DNA from: Promethearchaeota archaeon
GTDB taxonomy: Archaea > Asgardarchaeota > Lokiarchaeia > Sigyniarchaeales > SOKP01
Length of the DNA: 27,979 nucleotides
Reading direction: 5' to 3'
NCBI GenBank assembly: GCA_016839765.1
Contig: JAEOTP010000080.1
Coordinates: 1 to 27,979 of the forward strand
Shown here: one piece after another, positions 7,496-12,746 of the stretch
How the letters are laid out: each line of letters begins with the position of its first letter
Numbering within the stretch: the stretch's first letter is position 1
Notes under the pieces: generated by a model
Databases searched by the model: none
What the model saw: only the letters and a program-made list of their open reading frames with translations
What the model was told of the DNA's origin: nothing
Translations under genes and position numbers: made by a program

Positions 7496-8257
7496 GTGCA
7501 GATTAAAAGTACTTTAGAAAGACTTAGAAATTTCTTGGATTCCCAAATTCAAAATGGAGTAAAAGTAAAGGTTTATACCAGAAAAGATGATCAACTGAAT
7601 TACTTTAGAGAAATTAATATAGGGGTAAAATATGAAGAATTCAAAGAAATAATCCTTCAAGAGGAAACTAAATTAGAATTGGGAGGCGTAGATCAAAAAT
7701 CCTTTTCTCTTGTTTATCCAATAGAAGAGTTAGACTTAGTAAATAATGGAAAAATACTATTAATTGGCCCTGAAATCAAAGAAATATCGAATAAAACTGT
7801 AGATTTTGGATTATTTTTATTAATTGGAGTTGATAATCTTCCAGAAAATTCTTTTGATGAATTGAAGAATCTTAATTTTATTTCAAATGGAATTGAAGGC
7901 TTTATGATTCGGACTATACCAAGAAGATTTTGGTGTAGGTTAACTAAATCTATTATTAGCAAATTTTCTTTTGAATTCCTAGGTAATGCCATAATGTTTC
8001 TATATCAGCAGAAATTCAAGGACATTATTAAGTCCATGGAAATAATATTTATAAACTCAAATCCAGAATTAATAGATTCTTTTATTGACATGAGCTCATC
8101 GATTAGATTGGATATAGAACAAAAGTGGAGGAAAAAAGTAAAAGAATGGAAGAGAAGAGTTGACTGTGACTATGATTGGGATTGCAATGAATGTCCCTAT
8201 TATGATATATGTGAAGATGTTAAAGAAGTATTAGGGAAAAGAGAGGGGTTAGATTAA
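7496..8257 (+). CDS. Short acetyl-CoA synthase beta-subunit (AcsB/CdhC)-like protein with a C-terminal four-Cys motif
   Basis: ETKLELGG, IxLIGPEI and WCRLTK resemble a CdhC segment; C-terminal CDYDWDCNECPYYDIC; adjacent to cooC. Family assignment is from recalled motifs, not a search. Confidence 0.65.
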   Translation: MQIKSTLERLRNFLDSQIQNGVKVKVYTRKDDQLNYFREINIGVKYEEFKEIILQEETKLELGGVDQKSFSLVYPIEELDLVNNGKILLIGPEIKEISNKTVDFGLFLLIGVDNLPENSFDELKNLNFISNGIEGFMIRTIPRRFWCRLTKSIISKFSFEFLGNAIMFLYQQKFKDIIKSMEIIFINSNPELIDSFIDMSSSIRLDIEQKWRKKVKEWKRRVDCDYDWDCNECPYYDICEDVKEVLGKREGLD

Positions 8258-9036
8258 TTAATAATTTTAAGAAACCTATTAGAATTGCGATTGTTGGTAA
8301 AGGTGGAGTTGGAAAGACTGTAATTACAGTTTTATTTACAAAAATTATTACTGAATATTATGATTACAAACTTCTATTGATTGATGCTGATCCTACTCAT
8401 CCACATTTAAGCAATATGGTTAAAGTTAAACCCAATAAATCCCTTGAGGAATTAAGAATTGAGGCTGTAAAGAAGGCGCACAACGGAAGAGAATCTGCTC
8501 AAAAACTTGCTGAGAGAATAGATTTTGATGTGTATGAAGGGATGGCTGAAAGTAAAAATTTTTGCTTGTTTTCAATTGGTCAACCAGAAGGTCCTGGATG
8601 CTTTTGTCCATCTAATATTCTTCTGAGAAAAGTGATCGAGTCAATATCTAAAGATTTTGATATTATCTTAATAGATGGTGAAGCTGGACTTGAACAAATT
8701 AATCGGATGGTGTTAAAATCTATTGATATCCTTATAATTATAACAGATTTGTCTCTAAGAAGCATTGAAACCGCAAACTCTATAAGAAATCAAGCTAAAA
8801 AGTATACAAATTATAAAAATTTAGGTGTTCTAATCAATAAGGCTAAAGGAAATATTGATATCATTGCTAACAAGCTAAAAGAATTAGAACTTCCTTTAAT
8901 TGGCTCAATACCAGAAGATAATATTATACTGGAATTCGATTTACAAGGAAAGCCTCTTATTGATATTCCAAAGGATTCCGTAAGTTATGAAAGCTTAAAA
9001 AATGCAATAGAAGAGCTATTCTCTTCTTTTAATTAA
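8257..9036 (+). CDS. cooC: CooC/AcsF nickel-insertion ATPase (MinD/ParA type); N-terminus extended upstream of the ORF-track start at 8377
   Basis: The open frame upstream of 8377 encodes RIAIVGKGGVGKT (Walker A). Downstream motifs are IDADP, GPGCFCP (CxC Ni site) and DGEAGLE. Probable ATT start at 8257. Confidence 0.9.
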   Translation: MNNFKKPIRIAIVGKGGVGKTVITVLFTKIITEYYDYKLLLIDADPTHPHLSNMVKVKPNKSLEELRIEAVKKAHNGRESAQKLAERIDFDVYEGMAESKNFCLFSIGQPEGPGCFCPSNILLRKVIESISKDFDIILIDGEAGLEQINRMVLKSIDILIIITDLSLRSIETANSIRNQAKKYTNYKNLGVLINKAKGNIDIIANKLKELELPLIGSIPEDNIILEFDLQGKPLIDIPKDSVSYESLKNAIEELFSSFN

Positions 9037-9523
9037 ACTGTTTCATAATTTCATTTACCCATGAAATTGCTTTCTCCTTTGATTCTTCAGGATTATTATT
9101 TAGTGGTTCACGAAAACCAATCTTTCCTATAATTTCTGTATCTTTTAATGCACTACTGAATCGTTCTAATCCTTTTGCAGTTCCTCCAGCGCTACAAGTC
9201 CAAATAGCTATTTTTTTGTCAGAAAGATCATACATAGATAAAAATGAGCGCAATGGCGGTGAGTAAGTCCAAGCCCATACTGGAGTTCCTAAAAATAATA
9301 AATCATAATCGAGAGGGTTTTTATCAATTTCATGTAATTTAGGTTTCTTTTTCATTGTTGCTTGAAACCCTCCCCACATATATTTCATTGAACTACTTGG
9401 GTTAAGCTGCTTAATTGGCTTTAGCTCTAAAATGTCAGCTTTTGTTATATCTTCAATAATTTCAGCAATGAATTGGGTATTTCCCGTAAGAGAATAGTAA
9501 ACTATTAAAATTTTTTCAATCAT
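9029..9523 (-). CDS. Flavodoxin family protein
   Basis: YYSLTGNT and YDLLFLGTPVWAW motifs. Overlaps the 3' end of cooC by 8 bp, convergently. Confidence 0.9.
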   Translation of the reverse strand: MIEKILIVYYSLTGNTQFIAEIIEDITKADILELKPIKQLNPSSSMKYMWGGFQATMKKKPKLHEIDKNPLDYDLLFLGTPVWAWTYSPPLRSFLSMYDLSDKKIAIWTCSAGGTAKGLERFSSALKDTEIIGKIGFREPLNNNPEESKEKAISWVNEIMKQFN

Positions 9524-9588: not shown

Positions 9589-9605
9589 GAAAAAGTTTTT
9601 ATATT
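9589..9605 (+). promoter_or_regulatory. Putative BRE/TATA promoter for the leader-leuS transcript
   Basis: GAAAAAG-TTTTTATA lies about 24 nt before the ATG at 9627, consistent with a leaderless start at that ATG. Confidence 0.5.
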
Positions 9606-9626: not shown

Positions 9627-9716
9627 ATGATCTCAAATAATACTGCACCACAATCAGGCGTAAAAGCAAAATTTTCTTTAATTGATTTACTTGCAGTGTT
9701 ATTGTTATTATTATAA
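9627..9716 (+). CDS. Leucine-rich leader peptide (uORF) upstream of leuS: MISNNTAPQSGVKAKFSLIDLLAVLLLLL*
   Basis: Translated by hand: 29 codons with 8 Leu, ending TTA TTG TTA TTA TTA TAA; 132 nt upstream of the leuS ATG. Confidence 0.75.
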   Translation: MISNNTAPQSGVKAKFSLIDLLAVLLLLL

Positions 9717-9830
9717 GCGAAACCAATCCGCCTATTCTTTTTCTATTAAAATTCTCACGGATTGTTTCGCGTGGTATGGATTTTACTTGAAATAGATCAT
9801 AGGTGGGGCGTTTCTGATGATACATCAAAA
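9717..9830 (+). promoter_or_regulatory. Structured leuS leader with alternative helices (candidate attenuator)
   Basis: GCGAAACCAATCCG (9717-9730) pairs with CGGATTGTTTCGC (9758-9770). Alternatively, 9719-9747 pairs with 9791-9814. Confidence 0.65.
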
Positions 9831-9848
9831 CCAAAATAAGGAAATAGT

Positions 9849-12746
9849 ATGAAAAAAATGTATAATGCACAAGAAATTGAAAAGAAATGGCAAGATAAAT
9901 GGGAAGAAGCTAAAATATTTGAAGCTAACCCTGATACTTCGAAAATTAAGATTTTTTTCACCTCCCCGTACCCTTATGCTTCTGGAACTCTACATATAGG
10001 TCATGGAAGAAGTTTCGTGAATGGTGACATATTTGCACGGTATTATCGAGCTAAAGGATATAATGTTTTATATCCTATGGCATTTCATATAACAGGAACT
10101 CCAGTTTTAGCAGTTTCCTCATCAATCAAGAGAAATGATGTTAAAATTATCACCAGAATGAAAGAGTATGTCTCTTTACACACAAAAAATAAAAAAGAAG
10201 TGGAAAAAATTGTAGAAAGTTTTAAAGATCCTTGGAATATCGTAGGTTATTTTTCGAATACAATGAAAAAAGATTTTAAATCAATTGGAATGAGTATTGA
10301 CTGGAGGAGAGAATTTACAACTGGAGATGAGTTGTATAATAAATTAATTGAATGGCAATACTATAAATTTCATGAGAAAGGTTATTTAGAAAAAGGAGAT
10401 TACCCAATACTTTATTGTCCTCGATGTGAAAATGCAGTTGGGGAAGATGACATTGTTAGTGGTGATGAGCTTAATCTAGAGATTAATGAGTACGTTTATA
10501 TAAAATTCCCTTTCAATGATTCATACCTAGTTCCGGCTACATTAAGACCAGAAACAATTTATGGTGTTACCAATATATGGCTCAACCCAAATGGAATCTA
10601 TGTCTATGCTCGAGTGGATGGAGAAAAATGGATAATTTCTGAAGAAGCAGTCTCTCTTTTAAAAAATCAAAATAAATCCATAATTATATTGGAAAAAGTT
10701 AGGGGGAGCGATTTAATAGGTAGGAAAGCTAAATCAGTTTATGGTAATAGAGATATCTTAATTCTTCCAGGGGAATTCGTAGATACCTCTGTTGCTACTG
10801 GTGTAGTATATTCTGTCCCTGCTCATGCTCCTTATGATTATATAGCATTAGAAGATTTGAAAAATAATAAATCAATGATAAACCAATTCAACCTTAACGA
10901 ACAAGATATTAATAAGATAAAACCTATTCAAATTATTGACTTAGAAGAAGTCCGAGATATTCCTGCTAAATTCTATTGTAATAAATACAAGGTTTCGTCG
11001 CAAAATGATATTGAAAAATTAGATAAGGCTACAGCGGACAATTATAAAACTGAGTTTTATACTGGAATCTTAAACGATAAGTGCAACAATTATGAGGGTA
11101 TCCCTGTAAATAAGGCAGTAATTCAAGTAATTGAAAATCTTAGAAGCATGGATAAAGCAGATAGGTTATATATTCCAGTAACAAGAGATCTTCGATGTAG
11201 GTGTGGAGAAAATATAATAATTACTATTTTGAAAGATCAGTGGTTTCTCAATTTTAATACTGGTAACTGGAAGCAAAATGCCTTTGATTGCTTGAATATG
11301 ATGACTATTGTACCCAAGAAATATCGATTAAATTTTGAGAATGTTTTTAATTGGTTAGAAAAAAGACCATGCGCACGAAAACGAGGATTAGGTACGAAGC
11401 TACCATTTGATAAGGATTGGATAATTGAATCCTTGAGTGATTCTACAATCTATATGAGCTTCTATACCATCTCTCACCATTTAAAGCATAATAATATCAA
11501 ACCTGATCAATTAATCCCTGAATTTTTTGATTTCATATATTTAAAGAAGGGAGATAGCCAACACATTTCAAGGATAACAAAAATTAATGAGAAGCTATTG
11601 GAAAAAATGCAAGATGAATTTCACTACTGGTATCCAGTAGACCATAGACATACTGCTATAATGCATATTTCCAATCATTTAAGCTTTTATATATTCCATC
11701 ATGTTGCGATATTTCCTAATCAATTGTGGCCCAGAATCATAACTTTAATTGAACCGGTAATCATTGAAGGTCAAAAAATGGGTAAGTCAAAAGGAAATGT
11801 GAGATCTTTAGCAGATATTCAAAATAAATATTCTGCAGATTTATTTAGGTTTTACATTTCGCATAGTGCCGATTTAGGAATTAATATGGACTGGAAAGAA
11901 AAGGAAATTCAAGCCGTTAAAACCCATATTAATAGATTTTATAATTTCTTTTCTGAAAATGGTCAAGAGATTCAAGATTTAGGACTTCAGTATAAAAATA
12001 TAGAATCGAAATATGCGAAGGTAATCATTTCAAAAATAATACAGAACTTTTTAGAAGTAGATAAATCATTAAAACAGTTTAATTTACGACGCTATCTCCA
12101 ACTTTCATTTTATGAAACATTCAATTTAATTCGAGATTTAAAGAAATTTGTCGAAAGTAAAGAGGATTTCAAAATTGTCTTTAAATTGGTATATGAGGAT
12201 TGGCTTAAGGTGCTTTCATTAGCTATGCCCCATCTATGTGAAGAATTATGGGAATTTTATGGTAATAGGGGATTTATTTCTAATTCAGTTTGGAGAGATT
12301 TAAATACGGCTTACATAAATGAAGAACTTGAAATTGAATTTTACTATATTTCCAATCTTATTGATGATATATTAAGTATTAAAAAAATAATAAAATCTCA
12401 AGATTATAACGAAATATTTATATACACTGCCCCAAACTGGAAACAAGATGTTTTAAACGTGATAATTTCTAAGAAAGGAGATTTTAATATAATTATTGAT
12501 GAATTGAAACAAGAGACAGAGCTTATGAAAAATCAAGATATTATTCCCTTTATTAAACTTCAAATTAAAGATCGTATTTGGGAAAAATTATTTCCTCAAA
12601 TCAGTGAGCAAGAATTATTGAAACAATATTTGGAATATATTGAAAAGAGAGTAGATACGAAGGTTATTATAAATTCAGAATATGACCCTAAGCAAAGATC
12701 AAATAAAGCAATACCTTTTAAACCTGCTATTTACATTGATATTTGA
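9849..12746 (+). CDS. leuS: Leucine--tRNA ligase (archaeal/eukaryotic type)
   Basis: PYPYASGTLHIGH (HIGH motif), KMGKS (KMSKS variant), CP1 editing motifs ATLRPET and GVVYSVPAHAPYD, IESLSDSTIY, C-terminal AIPFKPAIY. Confidence 0.97.
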   Translation: MKKMYNAQEIEKKWQDKWEEAKIFEANPDTSKIKIFFTSPYPYASGTLHIGHGRSFVNGDIFARYYRAKGYNVLYPMAFHITGTPVLAVSSSIKRNDVKIITRMKEYVSLHTKNKKEVEKIVESFKDPWNIVGYFSNTMKKDFKSIGMSIDWRREFTTGDELYNKLIEWQYYKFHEKGYLEKGDYPILYCPRCENAVGEDDIVSGDELNLEINEYVYIKFPFNDSYLVPATLRPETIYGVTNIWLNPNGIYVYARVDGEKWIISEEAVSLLKNQNKSIIILEKVRGSDLIGRKAKSVYGNRDILILPGEFVDTSVATGVVYSVPAHAPYDYIALEDLKNNKSMINQFNLNEQDINKIKPIQIIDLEEVRDIPAKFYCNKYKVSSQNDIEKLDKATADNYKTEFYTGILNDKCNNYEGIPVNKAVIQVIENLRSMDKADRLYIPVTRDLRCRCGENIIITILKDQWFLNFNTGNWKQNAFDCLNMMTIVPKKYRLNFENVFNWLEKRPCARKRGLGTKLPFDKDWIIESLSDSTIYMSFYTISHHLKHNNIKPDQLIPEFFDFIYLKKGDSQHISRITKINEKLLEKMQDEFHYWYPVDHRHTAIMHISNHLSFYIFHHVAIFPNQLWPRIITLIEPVIIEGQKMGKSKGNVRSLADIQNKYSADLFRFYISHSADLGINMDWKEKEIQAVKTHINRFYNFFSENGQEIQDLGLQYKNIESKYAKVIISKIIQNFLEVDKSLKQFNLRRYLQLSFYETFNLIRDLKKFVESKEDFKIVFKLVYEDWLKVLSLAMPHLCEELWEFYGNRGFISNSVWRDLNTAYINEELEIEFYYISNLIDDILSIKKIIKSQDYNEIFIYTAPNWKQDVLNVIISKKGDFNIIIDELKQETELMKNQDIIPFIKLQIKDRIWEKLFPQISEQELLKQYLEYIEKRVDTKVIINSEYDPKQRSNKAIPFKPAIYIDI

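Follow-up and report, generated by a model that had tools for sequence, protein, structure and literature searches.

In the leader of the archaeal-type leucyl-tRNA synthetase gene (leuS) of a Promethearchaeia (Loki) genome, a leucine-rich upstream open reading frame (uORF) is followed by two RNA helices, A and B, which are real, conserved and mutually exclusive. The leader is very probably an amino-acid-sensing element controlled by the ribosome. On balance, helix A is favoured as the ON fold and premature termination as the output, and a leucine-sensing, ribosome-controlled transcription attenuator acting through the FttA/aCPSF1 route is tentatively proposed.

The leuS locus and its leader ORF

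The window, i.e. the whole stretch of 27,979 nucleotides analysed (contig JAEOTP010000080.1 of assembly GCA_016839765.1), belongs to a Promethearchaeia (Loki) genome, and the nearest relatives of its leucyl-tRNA synthetase (LeuRS) are found in Promethearchaeia (Loki) assemblies. The presumed regulated gene, leuS, is located at 9849-12746 on the forward strand and codes for an archaeal-type LeuRS of 965 amino acids, which scored 943 bits against the TIGR00395 leuS_arch profile (cut-off 648.5). A second LeuRS gene in the same genome, of the bacterial type (TIGR00396; G000 C75:65046-67832, minus strand, L213), has no such leader, and with the query used no archaeal-type leuS was matched in 13 of 42 genomes of the genus. 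A 253-amino-acid Cys-tailed ORF followed by a gene for a CooC-like ATPase (7496-9036) converges on a flavodoxin-like gene (9029-9523) and overlaps it; the latter shares its intergenic region with the leader. On the minus strand at 1372-2146, two tandem cold-shock-domain genes were recognized by eye beside an aIF-1A-like gene.

The uORF upstream of leuS consists of 29 codons (9627-9716, forward strand, with TAA at 9714-9716). Eight of its last 12 codons specify Leu, including all of the final five. A BRE/TATA-like promoter element is present in the sequence at 9589-9603 (forward strand), 24-38 nt 5' of the uORF ATG, and an A-rich then T-rich box at -39 to -28 from the ATG is kept across the family; this spacing suggests that the uORF is probably leaderless or nearly leaderless. 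A frame of approximately 19-32 codons from ATG to stop is kept over about 100 copies of the leader which, together with the promoter spacing, points to translation of the uORF. The uORF and the same post-stop RNA were present in all 29 of the distinct leuS loci of the family that were examined and had upstream DNA, and were absent from four leuS loci of another family.

Folding of the whole leader gave a third hairpin, conserved family-wide beside A and B, inside the uORF itself (helix P0; 9636-9703, forward strand, pairing 9636-9647 with 9692-9703). The control codons are located in its 3' arm. The P0 duplex was more stable with its own partner than with the partners from other copies (-12.4 vs -8.3 kcal/mol, 83 copies). 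Leu is also conserved outside P0 in the leader copies.

Structure and conservation of helices A and B

Helix A starts at the first base after the TAA and comprises 13 bp with one bulge (9717-9730 paired with 9758-9770). It is the minimum free energy structure of the first 60-64 nt past the stop codon, at -16.1 to -16.4 kcal/mol. Its left arm (9717-9730, forward strand) is common to both helices and, from the folding and the footprint model described below, would lie under a ribosome sitting at the stop codon. Its right arm (9758-9770, forward strand) goes, in the B state, into the inner helix and the tip of B. Helix B is the minimum free energy structure of the full region (-33 to -36 kcal/mol). 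It consists of a base (9719-9723/9810-9814), a lower part (9727-9735/9799-9807), a core (9736-9743/9789-9796) and an inner helix (9747-9785, forward strand, 9747-9761/9767-9785) which was identified in the full-region fold and the alignment. The distal arm (9799-9814, forward strand), which provides the 3' strands of base and lower part, excludes A.

An initial annotation of this DNA had described the segments of both helices, all of which were found where it placed them, and had proposed that A and B exclude each other through the common left arm, which the folds and the own-partner conservation in 89 copies (see below) bear out. It had also described the arms as GC-rich in an AT-rich background, and they do contain 54-57 % GC, compared with 17 % in the upstream intergenic DNA. 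Its loop pairing, 9742-9747/9791-9796, is possible as a slipped register (-2.7 kcal/mol), but stacking into B occurs in the register of the core given above, and the inner helix had been overlooked.

Helix A alone is borderline against chance in the window sequence, in which 87 of 2000 dinucleotide shuffles folded as well; none of 2000 shuffles matched B, and the folding z of the region 9700-9860 was -3.1. That both helices are real beyond chance follows from their conservation across copies. Fold counts were made on 89 non-redundant copies (<90 % identity): all 89 formed A in the 64-nt fold, 85 formed the B core in the full-length fold, and only three kept A in the latter. In 28 aligned copies, 89 % of the cells of A were paired, compared with 27-50 % when it was slid, and seven of its 13 pairs had changes on both sides. 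The purine-rich 3' strand of the B core (9789-9796, forward strand) had 92 % of its cells paired in the 28 copies, and seven of 10 purine substitutions in the U-tract with which it pairs were compensated.

Shifting bulges made column-wise covariation of B weak on the MAFFT alignment (10 double-change pairs; 199 of 500 shuffles as high), and B was therefore assessed with a register-free own-partner test, in which each left part was combined, in fixed windows, with its own partner arm and with those of other copies. In the 89 copies the energies with own and other partners were -16.5 vs -12.4 kcal/mol for the A duplex, -7.3 vs -5.9 kcal/mol for the B core and -10.3 vs -8.1 kcal/mol for B lower part plus base, the last with a z-score of -8.9, such z-scores being inflated by relatedness, which the controls share. 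The controls gave -4.0 vs -4.0, -7.6 vs -7.3 and -3.7 vs -3.3 kcal/mol; one control, the tract against the tail, reached a z-score of -2.9.

The suggestion that the loop pairings could form a pseudoknot with A applies in part. The 3' strand of the core may serve as a toehold on the A loop, where the core, taken as a plain duplex, has -3 kcal/mol in the window and -6 kcal/mol in other copies. A pseudoknot is sterically possible for the core of 6-8 bp only and would be at most a transient intermediate or toehold. It cannot explain the conserved arms of B lower part and base, which compete with A and thus indicate selection for a full alternative helix.

Other candidate pairings were considered. 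An early helix formed by the U-tract and the left arm had a median pairing of 0.09 (z -1.7) and was rejected. GGTGG in the distal arm resembles a Shine-Dalgarno (SD) sequence, but its distance from the start exceeds 40 nt and the pairing accounts for its presence. The small TGATG/CATCA hairpin noted at 9815-9827 (forward strand) does exist, but is weak (-1.8 kcal/mol) and has a comparable counterpart in only three of the 89 copies; it is probably outside the element. Two natural variants may be mentioned. In L085 (G010) the stop codon lies within the left arm of A, after a shift of 9 nt, and in the L005/L095 pair (G002), L005 lacks the distal arm of B and keeps the core strand, either by deletion or through an assembly error.

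Distribution of the element and exchange of the cognate amino acid

With a covariance model, 85 of the 121 genomes of one family were seen to contain the element, and the 23 genomes searched from other families gave no match. Conservation in relatives, which had been proposed as a check, was found for A and B across the family. In a covariance-model search of Rfam, also proposed earlier, no family matched significantly, the best E value being 0.28 or worse and far under the gathering scores.

Versions of the leader also precede other genes. Ile-rich versions are found before FrhB-TrmB genes, coding for a 4Fe-4S/FrhB-like protein fused to a TrmB-type domain (L143:1649-3100 and related loci), and Val/Leu-rich versions before small ORFs of 41-64 amino acids. 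The last 12 codons contain on average 6.9 Leu before leuS and 5.0 Ile before the FrhB-TrmB genes. A diverged copy in the same genome (G000 C64:64571-64673, minus strand, L115) follows a uORF of 25 codons which ends in Val-Val-Val-Leu, upstream of an ORF of 50 amino acids for which Pfam gave no match. That the cognate amino acid varies with the target gene, and that the frame is retained in about 100 copies, argues for reading of the codons.

These two observations argue against a structured RNA that involves no codon reading, such as a protein-binding site, a stable pseudoknot or a small RNA, with the Leu/Val-rich frame a by-product of P0; the P0 arms do constrain the codons, and Leu-codon mutations were reported to be immaterial in a similar actinobacterial LEU element (PMC1262725), but Leu is conserved outside P0 as well, and this reading is very improbable.

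Trp-rich leader ORFs (W-Q-W-P-W) were found before both trpB2-like genes of the genome (G000 C50:83309-83380, plus strand, and C50:68891-68956, minus strand), and at 23 of 30 trpB2 loci of the genus (L214-L245). They have a hairpin spanning the stop codon and a U-rich tract downstream, and no A/B pair; they are a second, independent leader design.

Ribosome position and the proposed switch

To represent the ribosome, 13 or 15 nt from the P site were covered in the folding; coverage measured for the Haloferax ribosome is 15-16 nt (PMC7261190). With the A-site codon at positions -8 to -3 relative to the stop, the median probability of A was 1.0. It was 0.98-0.99 at -2, 0.84-0.98 at -1 and 0.1-0.5 at the stop codon; in the window sequence a stall at -2 already weakened A. 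In the model, a ribosome at the stop codon thus prevents or undoes A, and one stalled at least three codons upstream leaves it, in agreement with the geometry suggested in the initial annotation. The stop codon varies among copies from 5 nt upstream to 10 nt downstream of its usual place and, since it is never more than 5 nt upstream, a terminating ribosome would always reach A.

B has the lower free energy in nearly all copies, the median gap to A being 6.8 kcal/mol. The barrier from A to B on pseudoknot-free paths was 24 kcal/mol for the free RNA and 13-16 kcal/mol with the stop codon covered, and a ribosome at the stop does not prevent the upper part of B from forming. Since B is the more stable and the barrier is high, the switch must be kinetic, with A as the first fold.

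In synthetase attenuators, shortage of the amino acid raises expression of the synthetase. By this logic leucine shortage should switch leuS on, and A is most simply the ON fold. On folding and conservation established by computation, we infer the following polarity and output. A ribosome would first load on the leaderless uORF, a step whose timing P0 may set. Under a shortage of Leu-tRNA this ribosome would stall in the Leu run and leave the left arm free, so that A could zip once its right arm exits the RNA polymerase, which would continue into leuS. When Leu-tRNA is plentiful, the ribosome would get to the stop codon, cover the left arm and block A, and the U-rich segment 9736-9766 would stay single-stranded for longer behind the polymerase. 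FttA/aCPSF1 would then cut and terminate, with predicted 3' ends at about 9750-9765 (OFF). B would be the fold adopted when A is blocked or melted later, and would bury the U-tract in the transcripts that escape.

Several findings count against this model. The pairing of the B base is fully conserved and has no necessary role in it, and the Trp leaders have a U-tract with no A/B pair. Further points are the weakening of A by a stall at -2 in the window, where Leu is among the most conserved, and, as described below, the position of the best FttA window, the greater exposure of the A state further downstream and the negative search for KH-domain aCPSF1 in the source assembly.

Output of the switch and alternative readings

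The conserved U-rich tract at 9736-9747 (forward strand) forms the loop of A and the 5' strand of the B core and is a candidate FttA/aCPSF1 signal. In the 89 copies U is found at 72-91 % in most of its positions. It is the only conserved U-run of the leader, the tail after B being A-rich. No intrinsic terminator, i.e. a GC hairpin directly followed by a U-run, was found, nor was there a U-run behind B. FttA requires that positions -1 to -36 of the RNA be threaded out of the exit channel, and prefers U at -23 and a U-rich stretch at -30 to -36 (PMC11616081). This signature peaks with the polymerase near 9773, which places the cut near 9751; in the mean of 30 copies, there was 81 % U at -30 to -36 and 70 % U at -23. 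This best window precedes the formation of A and is open in both states. With the polymerase at 9782-9788 the FttA window was 32-43 % unpaired when A was formed, compared with 63-70 % when the stop codon was covered. The role of the U-rich tract in archaeal termination that had been suggested is thus plausible by the FttA spacing and the conserved U, and its polarity would follow from the logic above.

Full-length aCPSF1 scored above the cut-off in 36 of 41 relatives, and gene ends in the source genome are enriched in words similar to the leader U-tract. A Loki aCPSF1 cooperates with U-tracts (PMC8716108) and is functional in Methanococcus. A KH-domain aCPSF1 was not found in the source assembly (96 % complete), which has a 434-amino-acid beta-CASP paralogue on contig C57 instead; this is probably an assembly gap. 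KH-domain aCPSF1 is missing, too, from a 99 %-complete relative (G022). Two sediment metatranscriptomes, with small shares and sparse contigs, contained one 151-nt contig of a relative that spans 9725-9870 and is uninformative on ends, strand and level.

With the polymerase at 9803-9818, the A state is more exposed than the stop-covered state. Its greater single-strandedness there would fit the opposite polarity, in which B is an antiterminator that hides the U-tract and is favoured by a ribosome lingering on the last Leu codons, while A, formed once the ribosome has been released, is the OFF fold and offers the tract in its loop for cleavage. Such a logic resembles that of the E. coli tna operon. 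The conserved tract is buried in B and displayed by A, and the control codons abut A, with Leu most conserved, and nearly invariant, at codons -2 and -3 (47 of 50 leuS leaders). However, A is left intact by stalls at -3 or further upstream, and covering its first pair lowers the barrier only from 24 to 21 kcal/mol. In 15 of the 50 leuS leaders the uORF ends with a Ser codon, and in several copies the stop codon lies 3-5 nt further upstream, where a stalled ribosome would barely touch A. By the time A is complete, moreover, the tract is further back than -36, where the FttA footprint does not extend. This polarity is considered unlikely.

With A kept as the ON fold, it is also unlikely that B itself is the terminator, with the upper B hairpin and the freed U-rich end of its 3' arm stopping transcription at about 9810-9815. 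Both helices would then have the classical antiterminator and terminator roles, and a ribosome at the stop codon leaves room for the upper part of B. In vitro, bacterial-type terminators are able to halt the archaeal polymerase (PMC13675443), and some copies (L085, L086, L105 and L167) have a good U-run at this place. The arm is nevertheless generally poor in U: its best 8-nt stretch has just 3-5 U in 60 of 80 copies, the best in the loop tract having 6-8 U in 79 of 80. The arm appears shaped for pairing with the left arm and not for oligo-U, and the stem would be unusually long and irregular.

Control of the leuS initiation region, which had been offered as an alternative output, was not upheld. 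B ends 22-66 nt 5' of the leuS start in 48 of 49 leuS leaders and no SD-like motif is present in 38 of 49, and sequestration of a start codon or SD sequence was therefore rejected, B stopping short of the start and no SD being conserved. Frameshifting or a read-through fusion was rejected as well, the stop codons being scattered in all frames and the phases relative to leuS being 19/16/14. The same distances weigh against a post-transcriptional switch, in which the full mRNA is always made, A lasts during stalls, and the first ribosome at the stop codon flips A to B, which would cut leuS translation or mark the mRNA for a nuclease. This reading would explain why the design runs one way, from A to B, why a ribosome at the stop codon lowers an otherwise high barrier, and why B has been selected as a complete helix. 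A conserved SD, frame or coupling was not found in the leuS leaders, however, and no nuclease motif was identified; it is improbable.

Comparison with known attenuators

Bacterial ribosome-mediated attenuators (E. coli leuL, ilvL, pheL and hisL, pheM-pheST, and the predicted attenuators of Streptomyces leuS; PMC1262725) likewise place, before an amino-acid or synthetase gene, a short uORF in which the cognate codons form a run close to the stop codon; they also share a hairpin that contains the control codons, and mutually exclusive downstream helices at ribosome-footprint distance. The Loki leader differs from them in its archaeal host and promoter, the absence of a compact GC hairpin with poly-U, the location of the U-tract within the switch, the use of one left arm for two long helices, and a uORF that is probably leaderless.

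The E. coli tnaC/Rho system, cited in PMC1262725, is a factor-dependent attenuator. Like the Loki leader, tnaC/Rho and the actinobacterial cys leaders that have no terminators combine a leader peptide and the absence of an intrinsic terminator with a following pyrimidine-rich tract for a termination factor. In the Loki leader, unlike tnaC/Rho, the factor would be the nuclease FttA/aCPSF1, its access would be gated by A/B folding, and tRNA shortage would be sensed in place of a nascent-peptide ligand.

The actinobacterial LEU element upstream of leuA (PMC1262725) shares with the Loki leader a uORF with a Leu run and a pseudoknot or alternative fold. Its Leu codons pair with the leuA Shine-Dalgarno box, whereas in the Loki leader the leuS start region is unpaired and the pseudoknot would be at most an intermediate. 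The mycobacterial poly-Cys attenuators (bioRxiv 10.1101/834739) reportedly likewise have a leaderless uORF and a cognate run as the amino-acid gauge, but are bacterial and have another amino acid and another RNA fold. Archaeal aCPSF1/FttA U-tract terminators (PMC8716108, PMC11616081) similarly have a U-rich tract about 20 nt past the stop codon and a second U-run at cut-site spacing; those known are constitutive gene ends, whereas the Loki tract is in a 5' leader, inside alternative helices. By analogy, the Loki leader would work like a bacterial leader-peptide attenuator, minus the intrinsic terminator and minus the SD pairing of the LEU type.

No report of leader-peptide attenuation in archaea was found in the literature searched, which included few subscription papers. 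A haloarchaeal leuA RNA motif and a trp minigene of Methanothermobacter have reportedly been described and may be archaeal precedents.

The evidence is evenly balanced on whether, more broadly, the ribosome picks the fold as it reads the cognate codons and thereby gates the nuclease FttA/aCPSF1 of the CPSF73 family, which would make the element an archaeal attenuator and a reusable Leu/Ile/Val module. With its approximately 220 nt, the element could readily be accommodated in reporter assays in model archaea. If its output is FttA/aCPSF1, the leader would be a case in which this archaeal relative of the eukaryotic CPSF73 is used conditionally.
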